Source of the DNA: Rickettsia typhi
GTDB taxonomy: Bacteria > Pseudomonadota > Alphaproteobacteria > Rickettsiales > UBA1997
Assembly (NCBI GenBank): GCA_945862075.1
Contig: CAMAWV010000002.1
Span: 6,872 to 70,871 of the forward strand
DNA: 64,000 nt
Direction of reading: 5' to 3'
The stretch's first letter is position 1. The number at the start of each line of letters is the position of its first letter. The notes under the pieces were generated by a model. It worked only from the letters and a program-made list of their open reading frames with translations, was not told the DNA's origin and made no database searches. The translations under genes and the position numbers were made by a program. Of the stretch, positions 4,915 through 45,133 are shown in pieces.

Positions 4915-4931
4915 TTTTTCATCTTGTAAAA

Positions 4932-19160: not shown

Positions 19161-19163
19161 AAA

Positions 19164-19871: not shown

Positions 19872-19882
19872 AAAAAAAATGG

Positions 19883-27311: not shown

Positions 27312-27863
27312 ATGTTTAAAAATATCAAATTATTATTTCTTACAATAATTCAAATTTTCTTTCTTATGTCTAATGTTAATGCAACTAATTTAGAAAACAC
27401 TCTTTATATCGATTTAAAAGATGGTCGAGTAGTTATTGAAATGCTTCCAGATATTGCTCCGAAGCATGTAGAAAGAATTAAAACATTAACTCGTCAAAAA
27501 TTTTATGATGGTATTGTTTTTCATAGAGTTCTTGATGGTTTTATGGTGCAAACTGGCGATCCTACTGGTACTGGTACGGGAGGTAGTAAATTAAACGATC
27601 TTACAGCAGAATTTTCTAAACAACCTCATGTTAGAGGAGTTGTTTCTATGGCAAGGGCTCAATCACCAAATAGTGCCAATAGTCAATTTTTTATTGTAAC
27701 CAAAGATTCTAATTTTCTTGATGGTCAGTATACTGTATGGGGTAAAGTTGTTTCTGGTATTGAGTTTGTTGATAAAATTAAAAAAGGTAATCCCGCTAAT
27801 AATGGTCAAGTTTCTGATCCTGACAAAATGTTAAAAGTGAGAGTTGCTTCTGATGTAAAATAG
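27312..27863 (+). CDS. ppiB: Cyclophilin-type peptidyl-prolyl cis-trans isomerase, exported
   Basis: Signal-peptide-like N-terminus, then FYDGIVFHRVLDGFMVQTGDPTGTGTGGS and ANSQFFIV. Confidence 0.9.
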   Translation: MFKNIKLLFLTIIQIFFLMSNVNATNLENTLYIDLKDGRVVIEMLPDIAPKHVERIKTLTRQKFYDGIVFHRVLDGFMVQTGDPTGTGTGGSKLNDLTAEFSKQPHVRGVVSMARAQSPNSANSQFFIVTKDSNFLDGQYTVWGKVVSGIEFVDKIKKGNPANNGQVSDPDKMLKVRVASDVK

Positions 27864-28057: not shown

Positions 28058-29449
28058 ATGTTTGATAAATATTTAATTTATGGCTTGGGCAAATCTGGCC
28101 TAGCAACTGCCAAGTTTTTAGATGATAATAATTGTTTAGTTTTTGCTATCGATGATAACTTGCAAAAAATAGAAGAATTAGTTTCTGTTTATCCAAAAAT
28201 TAATTTTTTAACCAATCTTGATAATTTTATTTTTGATAGTAAAACAGCGGTGATTTTTGCTCCTGGTATTCCACTTTATTACCCTACAAGGCATAAAATT
28301 ATTGATTTATGTCAAAAATTTCACTCTCATCTTTTGGGCGACATAGAATTATTTTTTTTGTTAAATAATTTTTATAATCAATTTATTGGTATTACTGGCA
28401 CAAATGGTAAATCAACCACTACTTCTTTGGTGGCTTTTATTTTTGAAAAACTGCAAATAAATTATTCGGTGGGTGGGAATTTGGGTTTTTCTTGTTTTTC
28501 TTTGCCACAGCAGCAACAAAATCATCATTATATTTTTGAAATTTCTTCTTTTCAGCTCGATTTAATTAAATACACTAGGTTTCATATTGCATCTTTGCTA
28601 AATATTACTCCTGATCATCTCGATAGACATGGAAGTTTTCAAAATTATATTGACTCAAAAAAACGAATTTTTATTAATCAATTGCCGTGTGATTATGCAA
28701 TAATAAGTATTGACAATAAAATTAATGCAAATATTATTGCCGATTGGCAGTTTGCAAGCAGATTATTGCCAGTTTCAAATAATCAAATCTTGCAGAATGG
28801 TATTAGTTTGGTTAATGGTGTTTTATCGATTAATTTTATGGGTTATAGTTATTGTAAAAAAATGCAATCAGAGTTTTTAAGAGGCAAGCATAATGAACAA
28901 AATATTGTGGTTGCTTTTGCAAATTTATTTTGCTATTTTTTAAGTAAAAATCAATTAAACAACAATATAATTGAGGCAATAATTAATGCTATTTTGCAGT
29001 TTACTGGTTTGAAACATCGCTTACAAATTGTAGCACAACAAAATAATATTTGTTTTATTAACGATAGTAAGGCAACCAATGCCGATTCTACTAAACATGC
29101 TCTTTCTGCCTACAATAATATTTTTTGGATTTTAGGCGGAAAAGCTAAAGAAGGGGGAATAGATAGCTTGGTTGAATATTTTACTAAAATTAATAAAGCC
29201 TATTTAATTGGCGAGTCTGCCTGTGATTTTGCTTTAGTTTTGCAAAAGCATAAAGTGCAGTTTACAATTTGCCACAATCTCGAATCTGCTTTTAATATTG
29301 CCTATAACGATGCTAAAAAAGATAATAATAAATTAGCAAATATTTTACTTTCTCCAGCTTGTGCTTCATTAGATCAATGGCAGAGTTTTGAGCATCGGGG
29401 AGACTATTTTTGTAAGTTAGTTACTAATGTTGTTGGTGATAAAAAATGA
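28058..29449 (+). CDS. murD: UDP-N-acetylmuramoylalanine--D-glutamate ligase
   Basis: GLGKSG, GITGTNGKSTTT, NITPDHLDRH, NDSKATN and the Mur ligase C-terminal domain are present. Confidence 0.9.
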   Translation: MFDKYLIYGLGKSGLATAKFLDDNNCLVFAIDDNLQKIEELVSVYPKINFLTNLDNFIFDSKTAVIFAPGIPLYYPTRHKIIDLCQKFHSHLLGDIELFFLLNNFYNQFIGITGTNGKSTTTSLVAFIFEKLQINYSVGGNLGFSCFSLPQQQQNHHYIFEISSFQLDLIKYTRFHIASLLNITPDHLDRHGSFQNYIDSKKRIFINQLPCDYAIISIDNKINANIIADWQFASRLLPVSNNQILQNGISLVNGVLSINFMGYSYCKKMQSEFLRGKHNEQNIVVAFANLFCYFLSKNQLNNNIIEAIINAILQFTGLKHRLQIVAQQNNICFINDSKATNADSTKHALSAYNNIFWILGGKAKEGGIDSLVEYFTKINKAYLIGESACDFALVLQKHKVQFTICHNLESAFNIAYNDAKKDNNKLANILLSPACASLDQWQSFEHRGDYFCKLVTNVVGDKK

Positions 29450-29477: not shown

Positions 29478-32400
29478 ATGCTAATTTTAACCAAATATAA
29501 ACAAGCAATTATTAAGGTTCTTTCTAGTTTAACTAATTGTTTGTTTTTTATATGGTTACAAAAAATATTTAGCAGTAAAAGTAAAAAAATACTCCTATAT
29601 TTTATAGCTATTTTTGGCATTATTTCATTACTTTGGCAGTTTCATTTTAAAGCGGTTTTGTCTGATGCTAATCCTCCTTATAAAAACACTGCCCACCCTA
29701 GAAAAGATGCTTTCCCTACTCCTATTCTGCCTAGCTTTGATGCAACCACTGTTTTAGAATCTCCCTTGACCTCTGAAACAATAAATGTTGACAGGCTAGG
29801 TTATGCATTAACCAAGCTTTATTATCAAAATGGTGTCGATTACTTTCGTTGTGCAACAAACGATCTAACAAAAAACGATCTGCAATATTATTGTGATTCT
29901 TCTATAAACAAAGATGATTCTTTAAAAATCAAAGATAGTCAATGTGGCATTACTCCTATTTTTTGCACAGAAGAACAGGTTTTTAATTTTCAAGCTATAA
30001 AACGAGAGAGTTTTTATAAAAGATCACCAGGTGAAAAAATTATACGTTTAGTTAAAGAATATAAATCAGGTGATACTATTTTAACCGACTATCGTATTAG
30101 TTATTTACCGCCTTATGATCAATTTAATTTAGTGCCCACTGATAGTACTGGAGTGCTAAATGTATCTAGTGTTGGAAATCCTGCTATCAAAATTGACTCA
30201 GGATCAACATCTAGCCCATATACTAATTACAATGGTAAAGCAAGCAATTTACCTGCTTGCAAAGCTGGAGCTAGTTTGCAAGATATAGGCAATACTTGTA
30301 TGTTAAAAATTAAGATAGATGATATCAATAGAATAAAAATTAATGCAAAAGACTTTGATTTTGCAAAAACTGATGATTACTGTCATACCAAAACTAAAGA
30401 AGCTCCAGTTTTGGGTGAAAATTGTAGACTTCCTTCTTGTTTATCTATTTCAAAAGAATATTATCGCAGACCAGGTATCAATTGCTTGGCAGATTGCAAT
30501 GATGGTGCAGAGTTTAATGGTATTGATAATGCAAATTTGCGATTACCAGGTATAAATTGCTTGCCTGCTTGTGAAACTGGCTCAAAAAGTGTTTCTTATA
30601 CTAGTGATTATCAAAGTTTAGATCCATTTCTACCTAAAGATATTGGAGTTACTTGTTTTTTAAAGCATCAAGGTTATGTAATGCCAGTTTGCAACAGTAC
30701 ACCATTGGTAAATTCTCCCAATTCTAATTCTCAAAATATATCCGATGTAAAAAATACTATTATCGCTGCTAGTCCGAATGTTCCTAGAAAAGATTGTCTG
30801 AATGCCGCTGATTTACCTTTATGTGCTTTTTTCTCTTATGCTGATAGAGCAGGAGTGGCAAGTAAATTTGGTTGTTTGGGCATGGTAATGCAAAACACTG
30901 CTGGTGGTGCACCGTCATTTATTGATAATCAATATGTTTTAGGAGTTGACACAATCAATTTATCACTTCTACCTCAATACGATGAAGATCCTGGAGTTAC
31001 AGCAACACTTAAAAACATACCAATTATTGATTATACGCCAAGAAATTGTAATGATGCAACATTTACAATTGGATGTGGTAAGCCTTATACTTATTCTAAA
31101 TTAGCCCAAGCAGCTAGTAGTATTGCCTCTGGACTTTATCCTGCTAATGTTGATATGATACCGGTGCAAGATGCTAGTTATAATGATGCCTTAAATCACG
31201 ATAGCGTTAATGAAAATCATGCTAATTCTTTAAGAACGAATCCTTTTTATAACACTACAAGAACTAGTACAGCTTTTTCTGTGGGTAAAGATTCTTCTGG
31301 AGTTACAGTTAAATATAAAATTACAGAAACTCTCGATCCTTATTATAATGCAACTAATAAACCAAGTTGTTCGTTACTTACCAAGCAAGAACTTAAATTT
31401 ATTGGTACTAGAAATTGTGATTTAAACCAAATTTGGAGCGATTCTACAGGTGGAAAAAATAGTATACCCGATTTATCGTCTAGTTCTAGTAAAAATTTTT
31501 GTGAAGGTCAATATTTTTGTAAAGTTGATACTCGTTGTTCGATGTTTAGTGATGAGCAATTGCAAGAAGCGAAAGCATTTTTTCATTGTTTACCTGCTCA
31601 ATATAGTAAATATGAAGAGAGTAAAGTTGATATTAAATGTAATGTTTTAAATGATTTTGAAATTTTGGCTCTTACTAAAACTACTAAAACCACATCTGCA
31701 GTAGAACTTGATGAATTAAAAAATTATATTACTAATGCTTGTTTTAGAGGCAACTTGGCTTTTTTGATTCACAAGCGAATAGATCATAACATTGCAAATT
31801 CGACTATTCTTGCGAATACTGATAATGTTCCAGATTATAGCAAGATCAATAGTTCGATCTTTGATCCTAGTGTTGTTGTTGGCACCCTTCCTTCTCTTGC
31901 TTCGCAATGTAAGTATGTTGATAATGCTAGAGTAAATTATATGTTTCCTACTGGTAATCCTAGTGCGTGTGGTGCTAGCGTTACAGCGATAAGCTCTACA
32001 TCAGGCAGTTGTTTATCTGGTAAATTTGCTTGTTATCATTCTAGTCAATTTTCTTGTAATCTAGAGCATTATAAGACAGCTTGTTATTTATTGGCAAACT
32101 ATAAATTTCAAAATATTGATAGCTTTCTTAATGGCCAAACAACATCAATAAGCGATGATAAAATAGCACCTATATCGATTGGTTGCTCTGGAAGTGCTCC
32201 TGATAATAAAAAATGTGTAGTTAAATATGGATTAGATAATTTAGGTATGCTTAATTGTTTTAGCGATTATGCTAATTTTACTAATACAAGTACTGATGGC
32301 AAATTTGATGCTGATCGATTTGCCACAATTAGTAAATGCGATGCAAATCCTCTTTTATTAACTCTTTTTGTGCCAAATGCCAAAAAAACAATTGTTTATG

Positions 32401-35400
32401 CCGATACTACACCTTTAAGCCAAAGGCTTATAAACGATAATAAAGTTGATTGTCCTGATTGTTATTGTGTTTCAATTGATGGTTCTGCACTATCAAAAAC
32501 TAAATATCTAATTAGCGGAGGTTCCGATATTGATTTTTCTTTATCTCCTGATGCACGTTCTGATTCGATAGTTCCTATCTGCGGAGCTCCTAATTCTAAT
32601 TGTTATATATGTTATAAACCAAATTTTTATGCTGGTTTATTTAAAAAATCAACTCCCTCCTCTCCTTATTATCCTGTTATCGAACATGAAATAACCCGGT
32701 TAATTGGCGTAATGCAAGAAGGTGCTTCACAAGAAACGACAAGTAATATGGGTTATTATCAATACGAAGATCCTTTTTATAGCTGGTTCTTTTTTCCAAA
32801 GCCAAATACATCAGGCTCAGATGCGATACAAACGGTAAGAGATTGTGGAGATAGTAAAAAATGTTATAAGGCTTTTACTGTTGATTTTCCGAATAGTCGT
32901 GGTAGTACAGATGTTAATAGTCCTGGCTTTCTAAATTATTCAACTAATAAAGCTGAATATCTAGATTTTTTTCAATATCCGCCAATTTATTATTATGGTA
33001 ATGGTAGTTATGGTGATGATGGTGAAAAAGAAAAATATAATCTAGTCTCAAGTGAAGAGGGATTAAATTATGGTGTGCCCAATAGAGTTGGTTTGCACTC
33101 TATTAACAAAATTTCTTCTCCTAGTGCCACAGCTTTAAGAGGTGCTGATACGATGGGGGTCAATCCTTATGGCAATTATACATATACCTCTTCATTTGAT
33201 AGAGAATGGTTATGCGGAATGAATCGTGATCCGGGCGGATTGCCAGATGAAGATACTTTTGCTTATTTTGCTCCTGTTTTAGTGCAAGGGGGCAGATTCG
33301 GTTTACAAACAAACAATGTGCAGGGCGATCGGAGAAGATTTGCTTTTTCTGATACAAAATGGAATAGTGTCACAAAAAAACTTGAGTATTATGTTAATAT
33401 TTGTTTGCGATACGAATCGGCAATGGCGGTTGGGGCTTGTGGTAGAAGAGAGTGTCGAATAGATAATAAACCAGGTATGATGCATTGCGGTGAAGATCAA
33501 TGTCGTAAATTTATCGTTGAAGCCCCAGATGATGGGGTTTATAGCAAGTGTCATTTGTTAGCGAAGACGGCTATGGCAGATATTGATGGCAAACCACAAT
33601 CGCATTGGTTTGTTAATAACTTGCAAGAATCATTATCTTCTGAAAGCGATCCTCTTCGGATCGATAAATTTCTTGATGACGATGGATTGCCTACTGACTA
33701 TGAAAAATGCGCAAAGCTTTATAGTGCCCCCACTTTAGAACTTGGTAAAAGACTTGGTAAAGGTGCGGGTGCGGCATTCCTTACTGCTGCTACTTTTGGT
33801 CTTGGAGTTGGAGTTAGTGCTTTTGTAGCGACAGTTTGGGATTATACTAATCATCGAGTGAGAGCTTTTTATGACAAAGGTGGTTATGTATGTGCCGAGC
33901 TTGATTTTTATGGTATGGATTTGAATGCATATAATGCAAATAAAAATGACTTGAAGGATTATTCGTTTTTTGAATTGCCAGATGGAGAAGGAAAAATTTG
34001 TTATGGAGGTAGAGTTGTTAATAATAACAAAGAATGTGATTTTGTAAATGGTGGTTTTAATACTTTTGCCGATCTTAATTCAGGTATTGGTGGCTTGCCC
34101 GGTGCTCCAGATCCTACGGTTTGGAGAGCGGTGAGAAAGGTTAAATTTATCAGTAATATTTCTAATGATCCAAATATTGAATTTTTAGGTTATAGTGTTC
34201 CAGAGGTTGCCGATCAGTCTACTCAATATGCTTACAGAACAGATACAAATGTGCATAATCTTTTTCCTGCCAAAATGAAGGCACAAGATGGTCTAATTAC
34301 TATGGTATACAATCATGCTACTAGAATGAGAACAATAGAAAGAATCGATTCTTCGTTATCTGAAACTGCTATTTTTAGATCACATCAAAATGACCGAGAT
34401 ACAGCAGCAGAACAATCGCCTGATTTAACATATGGTTTGTTGCAAATGTCAAGAGGTAAAAAAAATCCTTATTACGGATTTAACGGCTATAGTGATGATA
34501 ACGATCCCACTTGGAAGTGGCTTAGCACTTCGTTTCCAGATGATTATTCTTTATGTAGTATCTTTGGATTTATTCCAGTACCTATCAATGGTTTATGTGC
34601 TAGTATTTCTATACCATATGTGTCAACAGTTGCACAAGATATTACAAAACAAAGAGAGGACGGAACTGGAGATGGATCTCGTGTAGCAACCTCGACATTG
34701 TATAAAACAGCATTTCAGCCAAATAACTTTTTAAAAGAAAAAGTATGGTTCAAATCAGATTGTGTGCCAGTGCAGAAAAGAGTAGGTTTTCCATTGCTTT
34801 CTGCTGTTGCTACTCCAGATAATGCACCTAATTTATTTGCGCCAGAACCTATGGTTTTCGCTTTAAAAACAACATCCGTTACTAATTCATGGAAAAAAAT
34901 CACTGAAATTAACGATATGGATAAATTAAATTTTTCTGATCCAGAAATTGTTTTAAAATATGGCAACAAATATTACTATATACAAGTTCCTAAAAAACAT
35001 GCTTCTTTAACAAAGTGTAATACCACTAATAATAAAATATTTGATAACACTGGCGATGCAAGATTAAAATTTATTTTAAAAGAAATACCTAGCGTCGCTA
35101 ATGATAATGATCTTTTAGACAAATTAAATAATAATCAAGTTAATTCATCAAAGAATGAGGTATCAACAACATCAACAACAAAATTTGAAGACGATATACC
35201 GTCTTTTAAAGAGCATCATAACCCTAATTTTCAAGACAGTACAGATTCCGATTCCATACCTAATAAATGCGGGAATAGTAGTAGACCGTATGGAGTTGTT
35301 ATTGCTTCGAATCTTAAGCAAATAACTAGCGCCGTTCCTGCTGTTTCTAATAATACTATGTTATATGCTCAAATTGTGGCTAAAAAAGAACATCAAGGCA

Positions 35401-38400
35401 ATCAACCAGTTTTATGTGTGTATAGAGCTCTTATGAATGGTGATAATCCTGCCGCAGCAGAAGATAGTGATTTAAAAATTATTGCTTGTTTTCCAAGACA
35501 ACAGCCATTGGTTAATAATATGAGACTTGTTAAAACTCCACTTTCTGATGTTAATAATGATTTTTTAAATCATGAAGTGAGTTTTGAATATAAATATTCT
35601 GATGTTTCTACTGCTTATGATCGTATTGCCAATATGTTTAAAATTATTACCCCATCTGTTCCTGGCAATCTTAATAATGCGAATAAATATCAATTAAAAG
35701 ACAAATTATATGATTTATTTATTGCTAAAAATACAGGTTTTATAGAAGATGGTATTTATTTTGAAGGTATAAAAATATCTTCTGTAAGGCATTACTGCAC
35801 AGCTCTTAATCTAGATTGCATTGATAATGAACGAGAAATTCAAAAAATTTGCAACAATGAAGATCTTATATGTAACCGATCAATGGTGAAAACAAATGAA
35901 GATCTTGAAAAATTAAACCGAGATCTTAATCATGAGAATTATGATGCTTTTAATAAAAATGTAGCCAAATATTCCATTAGAGAATCTTTAATTGTAAAGT
36001 TACGAGTCAGAAACTTTTGTACAACAGATTTACTGAATTCTTGTAATCTGATTAATGGTTATACTTCTGACGATATTAAAAAATTTCCAGCAATTCAAAC
36101 CCTAAATCCACAATGGAATAATAGAACTACAACACTACCGAGTGATATTTCTGATTCTGCAAAAAATACTTTGGGTTTTAAAAATATGGTGTGTTTAAAA
36201 AAAGGTGTGGAAAATTTAATTAATCAATCGCCACAATTTGTTGTGCAAACAAAAAATGGGCTTCCTGATAATGTAAAAGGCAAAAAAGCAACTTCAGATA
36301 ATTATCAAATTTGTCCAGAGTCGCTTCCTAGTATTTCTTATCGTTTTGCAGAAATATATGAATATAAACAAGGTAATGTTTTAAATAATATTATAACTGG
36401 TGGCAATGATTTATGTGTTGGAATTGGAGGAGGAACAATTAATGTTCCTAAGTTGGTTGATTTTTGTGAGGCAGAATTATATCCTTTAAAAAATTTAAAG
36501 TATGTAAATTTTAAAGAAAATTTTCTAAGAAAAGAAGATTTAATTACTCAAGGCAATGTTATATATAAAAGCCTGATAGCCAAAAACTACACTCCTCCTG
36601 CTTCTAGTTATTTTTATTCTGATGAAAATGATTTAGGAGAGTTTGGAGTTGATAAATCTCACAATAATAGAAATAATGGCAAAATTATTAATAGTAATAC
36701 AAGAACCGCTCATGCTGAAGTAGATGTTTCTTTCGCGGGAGATGATGGGATGTATGGAATTTGCAATGGTTTTTGGAAAAATAAAGATATAATTGATGCA
36801 CCAAGATATCGCTGTGATTCTGCTACTACTTTGGTGTTGTCGCGTTCTCCTAGTTCTGATACTTGCACACGTTATTCTTGCCCTGCTATCCAATATGGAA
36901 ACCCAATTTCTAGTTCACTATCTGATGGCTATAATAATCAAGCAAATAAAAATGGTTTATATACTTTTTATAGCGGTAATTATGTTATCGGTTTGGATGT
37001 TATGAAAAAAAGAGGCTGGGCTTCTTGGAAATCTTTTACAAAAACAAATGATTTTATAGAAGATGTTGAAGGTAATGTTGGTAATAAAAGTGCTTGTGTA
37101 GTTGGTTTTGCAAAAGATCGCTCTAGTTTAGATGTTGGTTTGTTCGATTCTAATTCTTGTGCCGTAGCTCAAGATAGTAATCCTGGTACTGCAAAGATGC
37201 TTACAGCTATTTGTCCAAACTCATCTGTCGGAGATGGCAATGTTTATAACAATGTGGGCGATTTACCTTCTACTCAATGTAATCAATTTGGTTATTGGCG
37301 ATTTGATTGGACGAGTGAAGAATTTCTAACAAGATATGACGGAGGTATTTTTTCTATGAGTAGTGGCAAAACAGTACTCGACAGTTGCCAAAGAATTGAG
37401 TGTTCTGTTACTGATTTAGAAAGTAAATTTTTCGACACTACACCAAACCCCAAAACACCAATTCGTTTAATTAAACAGAGATGTCGCGATAGTTTGCCTG
37501 GCTCACCAGTGGTAATTATTGCCGAGCTAAATACCCAAATTCCAAGTTTCGTTGTTAATAAGTATTATTATTTAAAAACCAATAATTTAACAAATTGTAA
37601 CAATGCTACCCAAGTACATATAATTAAAAAAGGTACATCATATGATGCAACTGATGGCAAAACTTATGATCAGATCGATATTGCTTCAATTCCGTCAAAT
37701 GCAAGAGATTTTAATACCTCTAGCACTAATCCAGTTACTGCTTGGTATTTTAAAGTAATACAACCATCTTTAGATTTTGCAATTGACACTTTGCGCTTTG
37801 AGGTAACCACAAAGAACAACAAAAATACAGTAGAACACGAAAAACTTTTAAAAGTATGGAGTAAAATAGCTGGTTTTCAACCGCAGAGCGATAGCAGAAC
37901 TTCAATTCCTGCAATGCGAAACAAAACAATAGAACATGATAAAATTGGTGGCGAAAAAATCTCTAAAATCTCTGCAAATTTAGATGATGATGATTATGAT
38001 ACCGAAGGCAAATGTTTAATTTCTTTAGGATACAGAATAATTGCTACAGGCTTTAATCCAAAATTGTTGTGTAACTATCAAGGTATATTAAAAATTAAAG
38101 TGCCTTGTATTTCTACTTGTGATGCTGTTGATAATTCTATGGCTGATACTGAAATACATGGTTATTCGCTATGGGCTGAAACCGAAAATAAAATTAAAGT
38201 TTGTGGTGATAGATGTAGCCCCGTTACTACTAAAATTCCTTTTTCTTATATTGGCAAATCAACCCCTCAATGTTTGACTGGCAAAAAGCCATACCCATAT
38301 CCGCCTTTCCGTAGCCTAGAAGGTGTTAAATTTGAATTTATGAATAATCCTATTGTATCAGTGCAGGCTAGATACCATTCTTCTTCTACTAAAAGCAAAG

Positions 38401-41400
38401 ATATTTATGATGCAACTGCCTGCTCTTCTGCCTTGAATGGATGCATAGTTGAATTTGATAAAACAAATATTACAGAAAATGTATTTTTAAAAGAATCTAA
38501 TACAGAGGTTGCTTTATATAAAAAAGATTCTCTTGGTGGTAAAGAAAAATTTGCTTCTTATGATATCTTGCCAAATGTTAAATATAAAATAAATCAAGAA
38601 TCATCAGATTACTTTGTGACTTTGGTGCAATCAATAAAATTGACAGATGATAATCGTTGGCAAGAATATAATATAAATAAAAGAAAAATTTTTAAAGTAG
38701 CAGATTGTTCGATAAGTGCAAATAGTATTAATTGTCAATGCGGAAGCGGTTCCCATCCAGCTTGCCCTTTTGATAATGTTTTTGATAAAATTTCTGAAGG
38801 TGAGGTGGTAGAAATTAATTTAGCTTCTAGTAGCTCTCCTGTAAGTCTAAAATTTCAACAAAATACAAGTTATACAAATAATATCGATATTGAGACGATA
38901 TCCACCGCTAGCAGTCATTTTGTGCTACAATTAAAAAAAGATCTTTCTGGTAATTTGCAATGGAAACAACTTGTTGGCTCTTATCTTGGTTTAGAGAGGC
39001 TAGCAAATACTACTTCTGTTTCTATGGCAACTTGTACTCAACTAATTGATTCTGCTGTTGGCTTGGCTTCAAGTGATTACAATTGTAATTTAAACCTTAA
39101 TACATTAGCTGATCCTCCTGTTGTTTTAAGAAATAATCAAGAAATCAAAATTAATTTTCCATCTACAGTCCTTACTGGTGGTAATCCTTCTGATAACTAT
39201 ATTATTAATTATAATTCAAAACCAGTTAAAAAATATAACAGTCAAGGTAATTTGATTACCAATTTTAATCATCAAGAGCTATTTGGTGACTATATTTTAA
39301 GAGCGGTTGATGAGCCAAGTAATGGTGTTGGCATTGATTATTATTTATTAATCAATGCCACTGATTTTGCTTCAGCTCCTGCAAATAATAATTATCCACT
39401 TCCAAATCGAACTTGTCGCTATGGTATTGGCAATGTATGGAGTTTGCCAGATTCTGCTTGTCAAAATACTTGCCCTGGTTTAACACAAACTGTGCCTAGT
39501 AGTGGAGATGTTGAGGCAATTATTACTAATAATAACTTTGATTCTAGAATTGGCTCGGCAATAACCGAGCACACAATTAGTACAAGCGGTTTGAGTGGGT
39601 TGAGTTTAGGATATTTAAGTGTTCATAATAGTGGTGTTGCAATTCAAAATAGAGACAAAATCGCAGTAAAAGTTGTTGATATAACAGCTAACCAAGCTAC
39701 TTTGCATGTTATTTGGCCAGCATTATCTCATCAGCATGATGTTACTTTAATTCTTCAAAAAGATAGTAATACTTACAAAATTATACAAACTAATCCAATA
39801 GGAACTGGACCATTAGAGCCATCTCTCTCTGCTCTGCACTATGAAAGAGATGGTGTTAAAGATTCTATTATTTTATATCGTAGGTGTGGTGCAGATGGCA
39901 AATGGCAAGATCCAATTTCGCTTTGTCCAATTGCAGGCCCAGCAAAAGGTGGGCATAGTTCTCTTAACTCAATTTTAGGTTTTGTTAGTGCCAGCAATAT
40001 TGAGCCAGGTAATGAGTATACCCCAACAATTGCAAGTATTAGAAGCAACACTAGTTTTGATTTTAATCCTGGTTTTGACACCGGTGTATTAAAACAAAAG
40101 GCATTACAAAATATGGATAGTATTAGTGCGGTTTTTTATAGATTATTCAAAGTTGCTTCTGGCGATAATATTGCTCAAATTCCAGTAATACCAGATTATC
40201 GTATTATTGGCAATTCTCTAAATCAATTTGGTGTTTCAAATAATGGGAATGGGGTACCTTTAGGCATGAATCCACATAATATTTATGCTTATGCAATGTG
40301 TAATTATAATTATAGTAATAATAGCTCAAATCCAGATTATTACAATTTTTATAATCAAGATTTTGGCAGCGCGCTTAACAATGGTTGGGGAACAAATGCA
40401 AAATATCAATGCCAGTCTGCTACAGATAACCATTTAAATACCTATAAAATTGCTACTTCTTCTGGCACTTCTGCTTGTACACAAAAATGCAATGCTGGCA
40501 TTATTCATAGAGTTGGTAGAGATACGAATTTACAACTAGGTGGCAATATTGATGAAAATTTTACAGGAGCTGCTACAGGAGCTGGGTCTACAACTACTAA
40601 TTACTCTAAGATTGAGGTTTCAAAGACTTATTTTGCTGATAATTCTTATTCAAAATATAACCTTATAAACACTGGCGATCATTATAATTTTTATTCAGGC
40701 AATAGTGGGATTGGAGGAGATCCAGACAAAATTAGATTATTTGAAATATTTGGTTCCATCACTCCTAGAAATTGTAAAGATATGTCAAATAGTGAATCTG
40801 GTAGATGTAATTTATTTGAAAAAACCTCACAATCTTCAACTGATGGTCTTGTTGATGTTGTTTTGGAATCTCAATGCAATAATGAATCTGGAATTACAAT
40901 TAATCCTAGCATTTCTATCAATAAGGATGATGGTTTGGGCACTTATGGTTATATCGGGGAACATCCAGTTAAAGTCTCTAAATATTGTTGGGGTTTAAAA
41001 AAAACACAAAGTGCAGATATTTTATTGCCTTATGCATCATGTAGATCTAATGGTCAATTTTCTTTAGCAAATCCTTTTCAAGGCAAAAAACAAGATGAAT
41101 CTACAAGATTTAAATTTTGGAAAGATGTTCATGGAGGGGAAAGTATATCGGAATATATAATTAACAATGGTATTGTTCGTGAAATATTGTTGCAATATGG
41201 TGATATAGCAATGCGAAGAGGTGATACGTGTGGTTTGGATAGGTGGAGAAGAAGATGTAACAGTTCGGTTGTTTTGTTAAAAAATGGTGCAGTGAATTAT
41301 GATAGTGAGAGAAGGTTGCCAGAATTTGAATATAGCAAAATAGTAGATGAGGACATGTGTGGTTGCTGGGACGGAGTTATAAATTGGTCTATCCACTACA

Positions 41401-44400
41401 ATTTTGGCAGAAGGTACGTTGCTGATAAGATGAGTCCTTGGTATGATGCAAGTGTTACTGGAACAAGCCAATACTACGCCGGTTGGACTAAAGATAACAA
41501 CTATCATATAGCTAAAAAAATAGATATAACAGGCGATATGTTTAATATATTATGTAGTACAATCCCATCCGACAAAAGACCACCAGATAATAGTTGTGTT
41601 GGTTTTAAGTGTCCTAGTGCTTTTTGTAAAAATAATTATGACTCAGGATTTGTTATTCGTGAAATGTCCGGGGACGATAAGCATTACCTTGCCTTGAGTG
41701 AAGGTGTTAGAAGTTTGAAAATAATTATGTGGGGTTGTCCTACTGGTTATAATATAAGTTACGATTATCATGCTAATAGATGCATAGCATCTAGCTCTAC
41801 TTTTATCCCATCTAATTTTTATCCTAGTAGTATTGCTAGTGTTCGATGTTCTAGTTATAGTCTTTCTAGCAACAATATGTATGATCCAAGTAGTCCACCT
41901 GATTCTGCTATCACTCTTTATAATGGTCAGGTAAAAAATATGGCTTGCAAATTTGGTTATGAGGCTTATCAAATTAGCTCAACAGTTCTAGCATCGCCTG
42001 CAACCCCTAAAACATTATCTTGCAGTGTTCCTTCTGGATCAACATCGGCACCACCAGCTACTGCTAATTTTGAATGTAGGGCAAAACAATGTATTGCAGC
42101 AGATATTGCAGCTTTTTGTACAGCTGAGAAAATAAATAATTGCCCTTTAACTATCTCATTAACATCACCAACTACTAATCTTCAATGCATATCTCCTCCT
42201 GGTCGATTTGCCAATAATTTGATATGTATCAATGGTAAACCTAGTTATGATCGGGATTTTCGTATTGATAACTTATGTGGTCAATTTTGTACTTATACAT
42301 CACAAAATGCTGGTAAAGACGGTGTTACTTTCTTAACATCAGCATCAGGAAGTGGCGAATTGATAAGATATGATGAAAAATCTCTGTTCGTCTGTAAGAC
42401 CGGCTTTACACGTCAATATAATTCTGTTGGTCCTGATATAATACAAATTAATTGCAGAGCTGGCAATCTTGTTTACGACGATGCTCGTTGTATTTCTAAT
42501 AACTATTGCAGTTTAAATTCAGCTCCTGATATAAATTTTGCTAGTACTAATTGCAATCAGCCAGGTATTTTTTGCAAGAAAGTTGATGGCGCTACAACTG
42601 AAATATTAATTTCGCAAAATCAAAGTGTTAATGTTTCTTGTGGCGGTAGTACTGTTGGCACCAAAACCTATAATTGCACTAGTGGTAGTAGTACAGGCGG
42701 TACTGCAACTACTTCTGACACTTGTTCTCCTATCACTTGCACTGTTCCTTCTGCATTTTCTACTGCTAATATTATTTATACAACAGCTTCCGGATCTTCT
42801 CCATTAACTTCTTCAACAACTCTTGGTTATAGAGATTCTAGTGGTGGTTTAAATTGTGCTACTGGCTATACTAATTCTGCTGATTTAGGTTATACTTGCA
42901 CTACAAGTGGCATTGCAACAATGACTGGCCGTTGTTATCGTCAATGTATTGTTGACAGTGGGGTGATAACAAGTAATAGGGCATATACAAAACGATCTTC
43001 TTCAATAATTTATCTTAATCATAATTCTGTCTCGAATGCTAATATAGTTTGTAGCAGTGGCTATAGCGGAACTGCAGGTTATGCTTGTAATGATGGCACT
43101 CTTGCCTTTAATGGATGTAGTGTTAATAGTTGCACTATACCAAGTGATTCTCATATTAATATATCTGCTAATCAATTATCCTCAACTGAATCTCCAATTG
43201 GTCATGACACAACACTTTATTGCATACAAGGCTATACTTCTGTTTATAGTGCAGGATCTGCATCTTTAATGGCAGATTGCACTGGTGCATCAGGTGCTGT
43301 TGCTGGTGGTAGTTGTATAAAAAATTGTGACACTCTTCCCAATAGCGATTATGCTACCAAAAGAGGTGTTTATAACGATAAAGCCACTTGCAATGATGGT
43401 TATGGAGGAATAATCAGTCCTCAAAACAGAATCTGCCAAGCAAATGGCGCTTGGAGTGGAGCTTGCAATATTAACAATTGTGACACTCTTGCCAATAGCG
43501 ATTATGCTACCAAAATCGGTGTTTATAACGATCGAGCCATTTGTAAGGGTAGCTCAGGCTATGGATCTAGCACTCCTGGATATCATCTAGTTTGCCGAGC
43601 AAATGGCACTTGGAGTGCAACTTGTGTAACAAACTTATGTAATGTAAATCGTGGAGTTATTGGATACAATTATATAACAACTGATAACCCACCCGCAGTT
43701 CCTTATGGAGGAAATCGAGCAGGAGATCCTAATACAGGAAGTGGTTCTTATTTATTTAGTTCTGATTATATAAAATGTGCTGATGGTTATAGTAGCGGGC
43801 AAGGATCAGATGGTAAATCTGCTGTTTATCAATGCAATAATAAAAACTCAGATGGTACAAGAATCAATATCGACCCTATATGGTGTGCCCCAGAAAATTG
43901 TTCTTTTACTTATAGTAAATATGTAGGGGATCAATCCTCGCCAACATCTACAACTATAACCATTAATCACGGAACAACTGCTACCGCAGACAACTATAAT
44001 TGCGAATATAAACAACAAAATACAGAACCTCTTTCTTCAACCAATCCAGATGCAGTTCTTCTAAATCATAAAGGAAATATGAAACTTTCTTGTTCATTTG
44101 GAGTAGTTTCCAAGAATTCTTACTGCCCTGCTTCTACAACAATGACAGGATCAGAGAGTTCTGGCCAACAAGTTCTTACTATTAATGACCTAGGTAGCGA
44201 CAGAACAATAAGATCTTATGCTAGATATTATAAAGGAGTTGAGTATGGTTCGGGAGAATCAAAAGATGTAACATATCAAGTGGGCTGGTGTCAATTTGCC
44301 AACAGATGGGAGGTTCCTGCTTGTTATCTTAATACTTGGTGTAGAGTATGTGCAAAGAATGAGTGGTGGGGCGATGATCCTGCAAGAACATTCTGGAAAA

Positions 44401-44480
44401 AAATAGACTGGGTTTTATTATACTGCCCAAACACTAAATTCAATGGATCAAGACACGATTATGGATTATGTGATTATTGA
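29478..44480 (+). CDS. Giant (5000 aa) membrane-anchored, cysteine-rich surface or secreted protein with Sushi/CCP-like modules
   Basis: A single 15,003-nt open frame in AT-rich DNA; the longest alternative-frame ORF listed inside it is 109 aa. N-terminal hydrophobic anchor (LLYFIAIFGIISLLWQF). Cys residues recur along the whole length, often as C-x2-5-C linkers. By eye I see no RTX, autotransporter, Rhs/YD or NRPS motifs. Confidence 0.85.
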   Translation: MLILTKYKQAIIKVLSSLTNCLFFIWLQKIFSSKSKKILLYFIAIFGIISLLWQFHFKAVLSDANPPYKNTAHPRKDAFPTPILPSFDATTVLESPLTSETINVDRLGYALTKLYYQNGVDYFRCATNDLTKNDLQYYCDSSINKDDSLKIKDSQCGITPIFCTEEQVFNFQAIKRESFYKRSPGEKIIRLVKEYKSGDTILTDYRISYLPPYDQFNLVPTDSTGVLNVSSVGNPAIKIDSGSTSSPYTNYNGKASNLPACKAGASLQDIGNTCMLKIKIDDINRIKINAKDFDFAKTDDYCHTKTKEAPVLGENCRLPSCLSISKEYYRRPGINCLADCNDGAEFNGIDNANLRLPGINCLPACETGSKSVSYTSDYQSLDPFLPKDIGVTCFLKHQGYVMPVCNSTPLVNSPNSNSQNISDVKNTIIAASPNVPRKDCLNAADLPLCAFFSYADRAGVASKFGCLGMVMQNTAGGAPSFIDNQYVLGVDTINLSLLPQYDEDPGVTATLKNIPIIDYTPRNCNDATFTIGCGKPYTYSKLAQAASSIASGLYPANVDMIPVQDASYNDALNHDSVNENHANSLRTNPFYNTTRTSTAFSVGKDSSGVTVKYKITETLDPYYNATNKPSCSLLTKQELKFIGTRNCDLNQIWSDSTGGKNSIPDLSSSSSKNFCEGQYFCKVDTRCSMFSDEQLQEAKAFFHCLPAQYSKYEESKVDIKCNVLNDFEILALTKTTKTTSAVELDELKNYITNACFRGNLAFLIHKRIDHNIANSTILANTDNVPDYSKINSSIFDPSVVVGTLPSLASQCKYVDNARVNYMFPTGNPSACGASVTAISSTSGSCLSGKFACYHSSQFSCNLEHYKTACYLLANYKFQNIDSFLNGQTTSISDDKIAPISIGCSGSAPDNKKCVVKYGLDNLGMLNCFSDYANFTNTSTDGKFDADRFATISKCDANPLLLTLFVPNAKKTIVYADTTPLSQRLINDNKVDCPDCYCVSIDGSALSKTKYLISGGSDIDFSLSPDARSDSIVPICGAPNSNCYICYKPNFYAGLFKKSTPSSPYYPVIEHEITRLIGVMQEGASQETTSNMGYYQYEDPFYSWFFFPKPNTSGSDAIQTVRDCGDSKKCYKAFTVDFPNSRGSTDVNSPGFLNYSTNKAEYLDFFQYPPIYYYGNGSYGDDGEKEKYNLVSSEEGLNYGVPNRVGLHSINKISSPSATALRGADTMGVNPYGNYTYTSSFDREWLCGMNRDPGGLPDEDTFAYFAPVLVQGGRFGLQTNNVQGDRRRFAFSDTKWNSVTKKLEYYVNICLRYESAMAVGACGRRECRIDNKPGMMHCGEDQCRKFIVEAPDDGVYSKCHLLAKTAMADIDGKPQSHWFVNNLQESLSSESDPLRIDKFLDDDGLPTDYEKCAKLYSAPTLELGKRLGKGAGAAFLTAATFGLGVGVSAFVATVWDYTNHRVRAFYDKGGYVCAELDFYGMDLNAYNANKNDLKDYSFFELPDGEGKICYGGRVVNNNKECDFVNGGFNTFADLNSGIGGLPGAPDPTVWRAVRKVKFISNISNDPNIEFLGYSVPEVADQSTQYAYRTDTNVHNLFPAKMKAQDGLITMVYNHATRMRTIERIDSSLSETAIFRSHQNDRDTAAEQSPDLTYGLLQMSRGKKNPYYGFNGYSDDNDPTWKWLSTSFPDDYSLCSIFGFIPVPINGLCASISIPYVSTVAQDITKQREDGTGDGSRVATSTLYKTAFQPNNFLKEKVWFKSDCVPVQKRVGFPLLSAVATPDNAPNLFAPEPMVFALKTTSVTNSWKKITEINDMDKLNFSDPEIVLKYGNKYYYIQVPKKHASLTKCNTTNNKIFDNTGDARLKFILKEIPSVANDNDLLDKLNNNQVNSSKNEVSTTSTTKFEDDIPSFKEHHNPNFQDSTDSDSIPNKCGNSSRPYGVVIASNLKQITSAVPAVSNNTMLYAQIVAKKEHQGNQPVLCVYRALMNGDNPAAAEDSDLKIIACFPRQQPLVNNMRLVKTPLSDVNNDFLNHEVSFEYKYSDVSTAYDRIANMFKIITPSVPGNLNNANKYQLKDKLYDLFIAKNTGFIEDGIYFEGIKISSVRHYCTALNLDCIDNEREIQKICNNEDLICNRSMVKTNEDLEKLNRDLNHENYDAFNKNVAKYSIRESLIVKLRVRNFCTTDLLNSCNLINGYTSDDIKKFPAIQTLNPQWNNRTTTLPSDISDSAKNTLGFKNMVCLKKGVENLINQSPQFVVQTKNGLPDNVKGKKATSDNYQICPESLPSISYRFAEIYEYKQGNVLNNIITGGNDLCVGIGGGTINVPKLVDFCEAELYPLKNLKYVNFKENFLRKEDLITQGNVIYKSLIAKNYTPPASSYFYSDENDLGEFGVDKSHNNRNNGKIINSNTRTAHAEVDVSFAGDDGMYGICNGFWKNKDIIDAPRYRCDSATTLVLSRSPSSDTCTRYSCPAIQYGNPISSSLSDGYNNQANKNGLYTFYSGNYVIGLDVMKKRGWASWKSFTKTNDFIEDVEGNVGNKSACVVGFAKDRSSLDVGLFDSNSCAVAQDSNPGTAKMLTAICPNSSVGDGNVYNNVGDLPSTQCNQFGYWRFDWTSEEFLTRYDGGIFSMSSGKTVLDSCQRIECSVTDLESKFFDTTPNPKTPIRLIKQRCRDSLPGSPVVIIAELNTQIPSFVVNKYYYLKTNNLTNCNNATQVHIIKKGTSYDATDGKTYDQIDIASIPSNARDFNTSSTNPVTAWYFKVIQPSLDFAIDTLRFEVTTKNNKNTVEHEKLLKVWSKIAGFQPQSDSRTSIPAMRNKTIEHDKIGGEKISKISANLDDDDYDTEGKCLISLGYRIIATGFNPKLLCNYQGILKIKVPCISTCDAVDNSMADTEIHGYSLWAETENKIKVCGDRCSPVTTKIPFSYIGKSTPQCLTGKKPYPYPPFRSLEGVKFEFMNNPIVSVQARYHSSSTKSKDIYDATACSSALNGCIVEFDKTNITENVFLKESNTEVALYKKDSLGGKEKFASYDILPNVKYKINQESSDYFVTLVQSIKLTDDNRWQEYNINKRKIFKVADCSISANSINCQCGSGSHPACPFDNVFDKISEGEVVEINLASSSSPVSLKFQQNTSYTNNIDIETISTASSHFVLQLKKDLSGNLQWKQLVGSYLGLERLANTTSVSMATCTQLIDSAVGLASSDYNCNLNLNTLADPPVVLRNNQEIKINFPSTVLTGGNPSDNYIINYNSKPVKKYNSQGNLITNFNHQELFGDYILRAVDEPSNGVGIDYYLLINATDFASAPANNNYPLPNRTCRYGIGNVWSLPDSACQNTCPGLTQTVPSSGDVEAIITNNNFDSRIGSAITEHTISTSGLSGLSLGYLSVHNSGVAIQNRDKIAVKVVDITANQATLHVIWPALSHQHDVTLILQKDSNTYKIIQTNPIGTGPLEPSLSALHYERDGVKDSIILYRRCGADGKWQDPISLCPIAGPAKGGHSSLNSILGFVSASNIEPGNEYTPTIASIRSNTSFDFNPGFDTGVLKQKALQNMDSISAVFYRLFKVASGDNIAQIPVIPDYRIIGNSLNQFGVSNNGNGVPLGMNPHNIYAYAMCNYNYSNNSSNPDYYNFYNQDFGSALNNGWGTNAKYQCQSATDNHLNTYKIATSSGTSACTQKCNAGIIHRVGRDTNLQLGGNIDENFTGAATGAGSTTTNYSKIEVSKTYFADNSYSKYNLINTGDHYNFYSGNSGIGGDPDKIRLFEIFGSITPRNCKDMSNSESGRCNLFEKTSQSSTDGLVDVVLESQCNNESGITINPSISINKDDGLGTYGYIGEHPVKVSKYCWGLKKTQSADILLPYASCRSNGQFSLANPFQGKKQDESTRFKFWKDVHGGESISEYIINNGIVREILLQYGDIAMRRGDTCGLDRWRRRCNSSVVLLKNGAVNYDSERRLPEFEYSKIVDEDMCGCWDGVINWSIHYNFGRRYVADKMSPWYDASVTGTSQYYAGWTKDNNYHIAKKIDITGDMFNILCSTIPSDKRPPDNSCVGFKCPSAFCKNNYDSGFVIREMSGDDKHYLALSEGVRSLKIIMWGCPTGYNISYDYHANRCIASSSTFIPSNFYPSSIASVRCSSYSLSSNNMYDPSSPPDSAITLYNGQVKNMACKFGYEAYQISSTVLASPATPKTLSCSVPSGSTSAPPATANFECRAKQCIAADIAAFCTAEKINNCPLTISLTSPTTNLQCISPPGRFANNLICINGKPSYDRDFRIDNLCGQFCTYTSQNAGKDGVTFLTSASGSGELIRYDEKSLFVCKTGFTRQYNSVGPDIIQINCRAGNLVYDDARCISNNYCSLNSAPDINFASTNCNQPGIFCKKVDGATTEILISQNQSVNVSCGGSTVGTKTYNCTSGSSTGGTATTSDTCSPITCTVPSAFSTANIIYTTASGSSPLTSSTTLGYRDSSGGLNCATGYTNSADLGYTCTTSGIATMTGRCYRQCIVDSGVITSNRAYTKRSSSIIYLNHNSVSNANIVCSSGYSGTAGYACNDGTLAFNGCSVNSCTIPSDSHINISANQLSSTESPIGHDTTLYCIQGYTSVYSAGSASLMADCTGASGAVAGGSCIKNCDTLPNSDYATKRGVYNDKATCNDGYGGIISPQNRICQANGAWSGACNINNCDTLANSDYATKIGVYNDRAICKGSSGYGSSTPGYHLVCRANGTWSATCVTNLCNVNRGVIGYNYITTDNPPAVPYGGNRAGDPNTGSGSYLFSSDYIKCADGYSSGQGSDGKSAVYQCNNKNSDGTRINIDPIWCAPENCSFTYSKYVGDQSSPTSTTITINHGTTATADNYNCEYKQQNTEPLSSTNPDAVLLNHKGNMKLSCSFGVVSKNSYCPASTTMTGSESSGQQVLTINDLGSDRTIRSYARYYKGVEYGSGESKDVTYQVGWCQFANRWEVPACYLNTWCRVCAKNEWWGDDPARTFWKKIDWVLLYCPNTKFNGSRHDYGLCDY
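43323..43639 (+). repeat. Tandem duplication of one four-cysteine module inside the giant gene (period about 153 bp)
   Basis: aattgtgacactcttCccaatagcgattatgctaccaaaAGAggtgtttataacgat at 43323 recurs at 43476 with only 4 substitutions. gcaaatggcGcttggagtgGaGcttg recurs as gcaaatggcActtggagtgCaActtg. Protein: CDTLPNSDYATKRGVYNDKATC... versus CDTLANSDYATKIGVYNDRAIC... Confidence 0.8.
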
Positions 44481-44932
44481 TATTTTTCAATTTTGCGTAT
44501 TGTATAAAAAGCATTCCACACCTTTTCTTGTAAACCGCAGTTATTTAATTTTTAAGTGAATGATACTCAAAAATGGTTTTTTATTTTGGCATCTCCTACA
44601 GCATTATAAATGGCGGTTGTGAAGAAGTTAGTTGTCAATTAAAATTTTATGAGTGACAATCTAAATAAGAATACAGCAATGCCTGTGTTTGATATCTAGA
44701 TTAAACAAGATTTGATCATTTTACAAAAAGCTTTTGATAATATTATCTTAACTTTCTAATTAGATATTTTTATCATTTCTTATCTTTAAGTAATGCGATT
44801 AATAATTATTTCAAAGAGAAAAATAAATGTAGCTAATGTTTTTATCAAAGGCAATCAAAAACTAGCTTTATAAGAATATTTATCTGGTAAACTAAACTTT
44901 ATTGCGAAAGAATCTCAAATTTCTTTCTTAAA

Positions 44933-45133
44933 TCAATCAAGATCTGTTTTTGATTTGGTGCCAAATCTTGATTCATCAACATAATTAATGTGCTTGGTTG
45001 GATTTTTGCCATCATAATTTGCTTTTATTTCGGTTAGAATTTTTTTAATTCCCCGAGTTTTTCTTGATTTTGTGTATAGTGAATTATCGAAGTTTCTTAA
45101 TATAATTATAGAGTTTTTAATTGGTCTTGGCAT
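44933..45133 (-). pseudogene. Possible remnant of an IS630/Tc1-type DDE transposase
   Basis: A 66-aa ORF ends in ...KHINYVDESRFGTKSKTDLD, resembling the first catalytic-Asp region (xDExRFG) of IS630-family transposases. It is isolated in about 770 bp of otherwise non-coding, stop-riddled DNA. The assignment is weak. Confidence 0.3.

Follow-up and report, generated by a model that had tools for sequence, protein, structure and literature searches.

A single gene of 15 kb, encoding a cysteine-rich protein of 5000 amino acids (aa), takes up about a quarter of a 64-kb stretch of DNA (positions 6,872 to 70,871 of contig CAMAWV010000002.1, assembly GCA_945862075.1; the whole stretch is called here the window) that derives from an uncultured freshwater Rickettsiales bacterium. 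This gene is genuine, conserved and under selection. Based on its predicted export signal, the conservation of its cysteines and the organization of its C-terminus, it can be hypothesized, with a probability of about 0.5, that the product is a giant envelope or surface protein which is exported by the Sec pathway, tethered at its N-terminus and stabilized by disulfides, and which binds a host or partner surface through a variable, sushi-like tail. The broad kind is known, since host-associated bacteria have other giant adhesin-like proteins that lie outside the cytoplasm and contain a eukaryote-type module. New are the family and its architecture, which is Cys-rich, linked to murD, provided with a variable tail resembling complement control protein (CCP) modules and different from RTX, type V secretion and immunoglobulin (Ig)-like proteins; no curated model covers this family, and a literature search returned no paper on the giant family or its accessions.

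An intact reading frame conserved at the same locus

The frame extends from an ATG through 5000 codons to its stop with no in-frame stop codon, while the other two forward frames contain 255 and 739; about 379 stops per 5000 codons would be expected from the base composition of the gene (log10 P about -171). The longest open reading frame (ORF) in any other frame within the gene encodes 109 aa (41643..41972, minus strand). Ser (10.1%), Asn (8.7%), Thr (7.0%) and Gly (7.0%) are the four commonest residues, Tyr accounts for 5.2%, and the 180 Cys (3.6%) are distributed over the full length with the highest density at aa 251-1000 and aa 4001-5000, including 30 C-x2-5-C pairs. The GC content (0.339), the GC content at third codon positions (GC3, 0.184) and the codon frequencies are like those of the neighbouring housekeeping genes (GC 0.29-0.38, GC3 0.20-0.33). 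No notable DNA tandem repeats liable to collapse during assembly were found in the gene, and self-BLAST of the protein detected no internal repeats at E<=1e-3.

A search of 5.8 billion protein clusters with the whole product retrieved seven clusters, one of them being the query protein itself, all of which are giants of 4141-5209 aa with 50-63% identity and none of which bears a name or a Pfam domain. The 90% cluster of the giant protein also contains P0008, an independently assembled copy of 5002 aa with 95.5% identity whose contig belongs to ENA assembly ERZ21989587. In spite of 203 substitutions and of 16 gap openings that affect 24 alignment columns, this copy is likewise a single uninterrupted product. 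Metagenome and genome scans added the loci L002, L003 and L011-L014; the relatives from the metagenome scan are 50-58% identical, the closest DNA pair being 75% identical at the protein level. Altogether, the giant gene is present in at least eight species-level lineages, labelled by NCBI as Rickettsiales metagenome-assembled genomes (MAGs), largely freshwater.

In every locus of the giant clade whose DNA was read, the gene is directly preceded by murD and, upstream of it, a peptidyl-prolyl isomerase (PPIase) gene, and the interval that separates the giant gene from murD in the window showed no terminator-like site. In L001, L008, the contig of P0008, L010 (which encodes P0018) and L005 the gene immediately upstream encodes a Mur ligase that is MurD-like by Pfam, and in L004 a 459-aa ORF, matched by position, takes the place of murD. 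The adjacency thus extends to two deeply divergent lineages with compact homologs (P0018 and L005/L004). Two homologs are located elsewhere, L006 after a sulfatase-family gene and L007 after serS.

The intact 5000-codon frame together with orthologs at the same locus indicates that the gene was vertically inherited and is neither an import nor an artefact, and the evidence supports strong purifying selection on a gene of native composition. An earlier note, made from the letters of this DNA, had described a single uninterrupted frame with no alternative ORF above 109 aa, attributed it to selection, and pointed to a native composition and codon style and to the richness in Cys, Asn, Ser, Thr, Gly and Tyr with frequent C-x2-5-C pairs. 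All of this agrees with the counts given above, every pair quoted there as an example is present in the protein, and selection on the frame is corroborated by the eight or more lineages and by the intact 95.5%-identical copy. Its concern about collapsed repeats found no basis in the DNA of the gene.

Invariant cysteines and conserved segments

Within aa 1-3900, 109 of 116 Cys (94%) are invariant among seven orthologs vs 40% of all residues, and not a single Cys differs between the two 95.5%-identical strains; a large number remain unchanged even in homologs of about 25% identity. Conservation so far above background is the pattern expected for structural disulfides in an oxidizing compartment, and disulfides are probably formed in the giant protein.

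Several segments are shared with distant relatives (Table 1). The three copies of the (P)GxNC-x3/4-C motif, which recurs in the consensus of the compact homologs, form the N-terminal segment that is best conserved in distant homologs (aa 311-366); over aa 311-459 the identity to P0018 and P0019 is 33-37%. A cluster of six Cys (C1309, C1321, C1326, C1337, C1342 and C1358) is invariant throughout the family in two alignments (A2 and A3) that include homologs at about 25% identity. The family-defining core at aa 2425-2642, with the CNGFWKN motif, the C-xRYS-C and C-QRIE-C junctions and CNQxGxW, was matched by tblastn or BLASTP in 11 of the 11 distant homologs compared and was the best stretch for most distant matches of an exhaustive search; the family alignments show invariant columns in it.

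No relative covering aa 1-4270 was found in Pfam, NCBIfam or the PDB, and about 85-90% of the protein matches no known family. The whole 5000-aa protein gave no Pfam family at E<=1, a null result that is a sensitivity artefact, as very long queries can hide weak repeat domains and tiles of 541 or 500 aa reveal Sushi in the tail; ten 500-aa tiles matched only Sushi and four sub-threshold noise families in Pfam (E<=1) and nothing in NCBIfam. Comparison with PDB sequences by phmmer, using the full protein, and with a 6-sequence profile of aa 57-2330 yielded only noise. An AlphaFold2 model of aa 2100-3299 built from seven orthologs reached a mean pLDDT (the per-residue confidence score) of 39.7, and one of the core (aa 2325-2650) built from 22 diverse homologs reached 56.2. 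The only long stretch modelled with moderate confidence, aa ~2955-3290, consists almost entirely of strands. A Foldseek search of the PDB with the aa 2100-3299 model retrieved nothing at E<0.08, the strand-rich segment being without a significant match, and the core model placed short consensus repeat (SCR) chains of CD46 on top at E>2, unusable as evidence.

The core region (aa 2330-2880) can be read by eye as two loop-expanded CCP-like modules with four Cys (C..GFWK..C..W..C-xRYS-CP ... C.xGFK ... P.R.CNQLG.W...C-xRIx-CP). Profile searches of the PDB gave no match (A9) or noise (A10), hhalign against the C-terminal modules returned a probability of 0.3, and a hidden Markov model of these modules was silent in the core. 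The resemblance may serve as a lead, one without statistical support.

A small family of giant and compact members

An exhaustive HMMER search of 1.84 billion representatives with a profile of aa 2100-3299 recovered 18 proteins or clusters at E<=1e-3, and two profile searches of the 5.8-billion-cluster index contributed no more than P0018 and P0019. All 18 clusters are Cys-rich (about 3-6%), and members that look full-length have about 1,800-5,200 aa. Apart from the giants there are a 3025-aa intermediate and about 15 proteins of 666-2332 aa with 4-6% Cys, the complete-looking compact homologs having ~1800-2300 aa. The members that could be traced belong to uncultured, AT-rich MAGs of the Rickettsiales type. 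The compact homologs are collinear with the giant, with weak ordered matches from aa ~311 to ~3480, and share with it the invariant Cys, the C1309-C1358 cluster and the CNGFWKN motif, from which the giant appears as an about 2-fold expanded version with a C-terminal extension. Judged by collinearity, the CNGFWKN core, the C1309-C1358 cluster, an N-terminal export signal and a Cys content of 3-6%, these proteins make up a tiny, unnamed Cys-rich family that is linked to murD in the giant clade.

The labels of some entries look wrong. P0010 (NDE11612.1), a fragment of 880 aa that belongs to the P0006 cluster, appears at NCBI under 'Chitinophagia bacterium', and the MAGs of L004 and L005 (CAYVKI01, CAYWVI01; 33-37% GC), which carry murD-linked compact homologs, are filed as 'uncultured Rhizobium sp.'; mis-binning or mis-classification is the probable cause. 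The contig of the P0003 ortholog (JACCDP011523970.1, L001/L014; GCA_013565555.1) comes from a whole-genome shotgun (WGS) set whose numbering exceeds 11.5 million. Such a number hints at an assembly of very large size, possibly of bulk material or from a eukaryotic host, and the organism behind it might reveal a host.

The N-terminus and export

The earlier note had recognized an N-terminal hydrophobic anchor, and such a segment is present at aa 35-56 in all seven orthologs. It is preceded by a weaker hydrophobic stretch (aa 9-29) and a Lys-rich patch (KIFSSKSKK), and the N-terminus is the only conserved hydrophobic feature of the giant protein. It contains no lipobox, and no good signal-peptidase site is obvious by eye. 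Most compact homologs carry classical N-terminal signal peptides instead. This N-terminus is likely a Sec signal-anchor that would place ~4940 residues beyond the cytoplasm. A Gly/Ala-rich hydrophobic insertion with glycine-zipper-like spacing (aa 1426-1452), flanked on both sides by conserved Cys, was considered as a second transmembrane helix. This was ruled out, as the segment is a non-conserved, lineage-specific insertion: it occurs in five of the seven giant orthologs, is shortened in P0003 and is missing in P0002, the closest ortholog, and in all compact homologs.

A variable C-terminal quarter ending in sushi/CCP-like modules

Mean identity to the orthologs is 0.5-0.7 up to aa ~3750, falls to 0.25-0.38 beyond this point and to 0.03 in the last 250 aa, and only 8 of the 64 Cys of the variable quarter can be aligned as invariant. 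Between the two 95.5%-identical strains, 152 of 203 substitutions (75%) are located in aa 3501-4750 and 137 of 203 in aa 3751-5000; the divergence is 20% in aa 4501-4750 (51 substitutions) vs about 0.5% in aa 501-2000 (7 substitutions). A conserved membrane-proximal part combined with a fast-evolving modular distal end is the usual signature of an exposed binding tip, by analogy with which the tail may be interpreted.

Seven modules with four Cys each could be parsed in aa 4271-4807. The first two are separated by a segment with six Cys (aa 4344-4420), and the other junctions are of the C-x3-5-C type, so that what look like short C-x3-5-C 'linkers' in this region are the C4-linker-C1 junctions of tandem modules. 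Pfam Sushi (PF00084) matched the tile aa 4271-4811 with E=2.6e-5 and 25.0 bits and the tile aa 4501-5000 with 22.5 bits, both above the gathering score of 20.7. In an alignment of 28 modules taken from five of the seven orthologs all four Cys are strictly conserved, Gly after C2 is at least 90% conserved, and GxW occurs in two of the seven modules of the giant protein (aa 4617-4663 and 4668-4716). When a profile of the 28 modules was compared with 177,635 PDB sequences, nearly all of the 38 matches were CCP proteins, including beta2-glycoprotein I (3.3e-4), factor H (9.4e-4), CD46, C1r, MASP-1/2, FHR, C4BP and vaccinia OPG190. Based on this modest evidence the array is probably sushi/CCP-like, not a proven member of that family. 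Strict four-Cys modules number from 0 to 10 among the orthologs.

The view of the earlier note that the protein has no recognizable class consequently stands for about 85-90% of its length and fails for aa 4271-4807. Its reading that the hallmarks of known bacterial giants are missing was confirmed by motif, Pfam and self-BLAST checks: the giant protein has no GGxGxD (GG.G.D) nonapeptide and no HemolysinCabind match in the Pfam scans; no autotransporter barrel or two-partner secretion (TPS) domain was found by Pfam in the whole protein or in the ten tiles; no motif or Pfam match to Rhs/YD (YDxxGR) or to non-ribosomal peptide and polyketide synthases was detected, the LPxTG motif is absent, and there is no Pfam match to Ig-like, Big or cadherin repeats. 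The tiled profile searches it had called for placed the whole protein in no adhesin or toxin family and found Sushi in the tail only.

Proposed function and alternative explanations

According to the proposed mechanism, the signal-anchor would route the chain through Sec and tether the giant protein to the inner membrane, whereas export of the compact relatives would rely on a classical signal peptide. In the periplasm the ~175 exported Cys would be oxidized, and aa ~57-3750, which are conserved across species, would become a long 'stalk' of mostly beta/coil structure that resists proteases. The distal C-terminal quarter, ending in the sushi/CCP-like array, would form a ligand-binding tip that varies in module number and sequence, and its ligand would most likely be found on the surface of the host or a partner cell. 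Overall the protein would resemble a eukaryote-style modular adhesion receptor, or a bacterial giant adhesin made from different parts. The topology beyond the inner membrane, the surface exposure and the binding function are predictions made from the sequence, and a role in host interaction receives indirect support from the hypervariability of the array, which is seen among species as well as in the comparison of two 95%-identical strains.

A number of observations weigh against this proposal. No outer-membrane translocation or anchoring module was found (autotransporter, TPS, RTX/type I secretion system (T1SS) signal, LPxTG or lipobox), which leaves the route from the inner membrane to the surface unexplained, and the conserved murD adjacency fits a role inside the envelope equally well. 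Both regions that were modelled gave poor structures. Regarding the array, the best single module scores 17.8 bits, below the gathering score, the PDB profile E-values range only from 3e-4 to 1e-2, marginal though specific, and three ortholog tails had no match in Pfam, Sushi included; for these reasons the label was restricted to 'sushi/CCP-like'. Moreover, the hypervariability of the tail is a measure at the amino-acid level in which diversifying selection is not separated from relaxed constraint or recombination.

An alternative that is unlikely, although it accounts for several of these facts, is that the protein acts as a periplasmic scaffold of the envelope, tethered to the inner membrane, spanning or filling the periplasm, cross-linking the envelope by disulfides and co-expressed with peptidoglycan synthesis. 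Its functional analogues would be the Cys-rich envelope proteins of chlamydiae or inner-membrane-anchored giants that span the periplasm, such as TamB/AsmA-like proteins. The conserved signal-anchor and the lack of any detected outer-membrane export module would be expected of such a scaffold, as would the extreme conservation of Cys, the periplasmic-type PPIase gene nearby and the position of murD, 28 nt upstream without a terminator-like site and adjacent in the giant clade as well as in the compact P0018 and L005/L004. On the other hand, a tail that diverges by 20% between strains 99.5% identical elsewhere, and that has 0 to 10 modules between species, is unlike a housekeeping component; nearly all bacteria lack the family, of which 1.84 billion proteins yielded only 18 clusters, the homologs of L006 and L007 are not beside murD, and no Pfam match to chlamydial outer-membrane proteins or to the AsmA/TamB families was obtained.

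The proposal of a tethered, surface-binding protein also has to be compared with that of a secreted exoprotein, in which the signal is cleaved and the folded protein leaves by a secretin-based pathway resembling the type II secretion system (T2SS), to act as a free matrix protein, adhesin or host-binding effector. Folded, disulfide-bonded proteins are typical T2SS cargo, the compact homologs have signal peptides that look cleavable, and a MshL/GspD/PilQ-like secretin gene is located in the window (894-2522). Type IV pilus/T2SS genes are furthermore reported to be widespread in basal Rickettsiales (Castelli et al., 2024; PMC10847448). The secretin, however, is below every NCBIfam cut-off, has the pilus secretin MshL as its best match and could just as well belong to a pilus, the window contains no further T2SS gene, and the N-terminus in the giant clade shows no obvious signal-peptidase site by eye. 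In addition, T2SS is not known to carry a cargo of 540 kDa, and an exoprotein of this kind is rather improbable.

The conservation of the N-terminal three quarters and the high variability of the C-terminus, whose last 250 aa are essentially unalignable between orthologs, recall polymorphic toxins and effectors such as Rhs, CdiA and MafB, in which a conserved delivery stalk carries a variable toxic tip. This explanation is very improbable considering that no YD, TPS or PT-type motif and no toxin domain was found in the giant tail and in five homolog tails scanned, that there is no plausible immunity ORF (the ORFs of the downstream gap, of 25% GC, reach at most 66 aa), and that the variable part consists of Cys modules and not of a discrete terminal domain. 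Finally, an assembly artefact, a pseudogene or mis-binned eukaryotic host DNA, which might be suspected since every sequence comes from a metagenome or MAG assembly, the contig of one ortholog belongs to a very large WGS set (JACCDP01) and CCP modules are typically eukaryotic, can practically be discarded, given a frame intact in at least eight independent assemblies, bacterial housekeeping genes on both flanks in the loci read, no collapsible tandem DNA repeats, native codon usage and GC, and an uninterrupted 15-kb frame with nothing suggesting introns.

A bolder extension of the surface-protein hypothesis, which is doubtful at present, is that the whole protein represents an independent bacterial radiation of loop-expanded CCP-like four-Cys modules, forming a eukaryote-style extracellular fibre. 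Environmental Rickettsiales that live outside cells, as epibionts, would use this fibre as their main organelle for attachment to the host, the host range would depend on its strain-variable tip, and murD-linked expression would couple its display to envelope growth.

Comparison with known protein families

The tail has in common with Sushi/CCP/SCR proteins (PF00084; factor H, CD46, beta2-glycoprotein I, C1r, MASPs and poxvirus SCR proteins) the tandem modules of ~50-85 aa, the CCP-like spacing of their four Cys, G-[YF] immediately following C2, C4-C1 linkers of 3-5 residues and, in two modules, a Trp located between C3 and C4. It differs in that the giant protein is bacterial with native composition, the hallmark Trp is missing in most modules, which are Ser/Thr-rich, and the array accounts for only ~11% of the protein; the likeness is one of sequence.

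Like the giant adhesins of Gram-negative bacteria (the RTX proteins LapA, SiiE and MpIBP; Bap/Big-repeat proteins), the protein described here would be extracytoplasmic, has several thousand residues with conserved regions and variable, distal, putatively ligand-binding ones, and represents a large genomic investment in a host- or surface-associated bacterium. Classical giant adhesins are Cys-poor and stabilized by Ca2+. The giant protein has no RTX nonapeptides, no T1SS signal and no near-identical Ig-like array; instead it shows a predicted N-terminal Sec signal-anchor and 3.6% Cys.

Chlamydial OmcA/OmcB are, as is proposed for the giant protein, Cys-rich, Sec-exported envelope proteins of host-associated bacteria, and their disulfide cross-linking is thought to give mechanical stability. 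They have no sequence or Pfam relation to the giant protein, which is about 10 times larger, modular and provided with a hypervariable tail, and whose bacterium keeps murD and an FtsI/penicillin-binding protein (PBP) homolog. With the eukaryote-like extracellular-domain proteins of protist and invertebrate symbionts it shares a typically eukaryotic adhesion module in a presumably host-associated bacterium. In contrast to these, the giant gene bears no sign of recent transfer, given its native composition and the marginal similarity to eukaryotic CCPs, and the bulk of the protein belongs to a lineage-specific family for which no eukaryotic counterpart was detected.

Environmental Rickettsiales are central to the debate on the origin of obligate host association and intracellularity (Castelli et al., 2024; PMC10847448). 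The attachment factors of uncultured lineages of this order have mostly been guessed from generic adhesin families, and the giant gene is a concrete candidate: it is lineage-restricted, vertically inherited and very costly, with an ultra-conserved Cys-rich putative stalk vs a strain-variable sushi-like tip. If exposed at the surface, the protein would be a marker for host-range evolution, a rare case of bacterial use of CCP modules and a new structural solution for giant surface proteins, in which disulfides take the role of Ig-like repeats and Ca2+. A periplasmic location would instead make it an envelope scaffold of a new kind, with a link to peptidoglycan synthesis. In both cases the protein is a good target for structure determination, given that about 4,300 of its residues have no detectable relative of known fold.

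Genomic context

Coordinates of the features are collected in Table 1. The window also contains ilvC, hisF, pyrB/pyrC, ribD, nadC and hemE/hemH, and together with the secretin these genes make the description of the genome as streamlined, given in the earlier note, only partly apt. The presence of murD and the FtsI/PBP homolog indicates that the bacterium keeps peptidoglycan genes. It is speculative that the PPIase encoded near the giant gene acts as a folding helper, and the secretin might form an outer-membrane channel of a pilus or of a T2SS-like system, a possibility that bears on the exit route of a giant protein folded in the periplasm.

Table 1. Positions in the window of the giant gene, its segments and other genes discussed in the text
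Feature	Position	Strand	Remarks
Giant gene	29478..44480	+	ATG start, 5000 codons plus stop, zero in-frame stops
N-terminal signal-anchor	29580..29645 (aa 35-56)	+	Hydropathy; putative; in all 7 orthologs
(P)GxNC-x3/4-C motif, three copies	30408..30575 (aa 311-366)	+	Found by regular expression
Family-wide invariant Cys cluster	33402..33551 (aa 1309-1358)	+	C1309, C1321, C1326, C1337, C1342, C1358
Gly/Ala-rich hydrophobic insertion	33753..33833 (aa 1426-1452)	+	GAGAAFLTAATFGLGVGVSAFVATVW, glycine-zipper-like spacing
Family-defining core	36750..37403 (aa 2425-2642)	+	CNGFWKN, C-xRYS-C and C-QRIE-C junctions, CNQxGxW
Beta-strand-rich segment	38340..39347 (aa ~2955-3290)	+	AlphaFold2; pLDDT 65-80 in most 10-residue blocks
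Variable C-terminal quarter	40725..44477 (aa ~3750-5000)	+	Ortholog alignment
Sushi/CCP-like array with seven 4-Cys modules	42288..43898 (aa 4271-4807)	+	Parsed at C-x3-5-C pairs
4-Cys modules (C1 to C4, 47-83 aa)	aa 4271-4338, 4421-4486, 4490-4547, 4552-4613, 4617-4663, 4668-4716, 4721-4803
murD	28058..29449	+	28 nt upstream of the giant gene; TIGR01087, 342 bits
PpiA/PpiB-type peptidyl-prolyl isomerase	27312..27863	+	Upstream of murD; Pro_isomerase at the same position in L001 and L008
tRNA genes	26410-26481	-	This and the next three are interspersed with the PPIase gene, shortly before murD
	27101-27171	+
	27192-27274	+
	27948-28038	+
Fifth tRNA gene	19886-19958	-
Mito_fiss_Elm1-family gene	20968-22020	-	Conserved in the orthologous locus L001
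Secretin gene	894-2522	+	Pfam Secretin 3.4e-31; best NCBIfam MshL, GspD, PilQ, all below cut-offs
ORFs after the secretin gene	2526-3290, 3293-4063		254 and 256 aa; no match in Pfam or NCBIfam
Type I restriction-modification HsdM methylase gene	61652-63196	+	Highest GC3 (0.33) of the genes checked

Downstream of the giant gene, a gap of 773 nt (44481-45253; 25% GC, ORFs of at most 66 aa) precedes a convergent gene of the YmdB-type, and no terminator-like site was found in it. A decayed C-terminal extension of the protein was considered for this gap and rejected, as tblastn with the ortholog tails gave no match past the gene's own end. The corresponding gap in the orthologous L001 measures only 57 nt, and the genes that follow there are as in the window (YmdB-type phosphoesterase, nuoI, nuoH, ffh and bamB).

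The downstream genes differ in L008 (TrbC/TrbL, efp, dapF). In this locus the giant ORF (P0007) is shorter (4141 aa), with its stop at about aa 4110 of the window protein, and is followed by a separate ORF of 515 aa (18540-20087) with a near-threshold match to Laminin_G_3/ConA-like lectin (E=1.5e-5, 25.6 vs 27.6 bits), which may represent a split or replaced C-terminal binding region.

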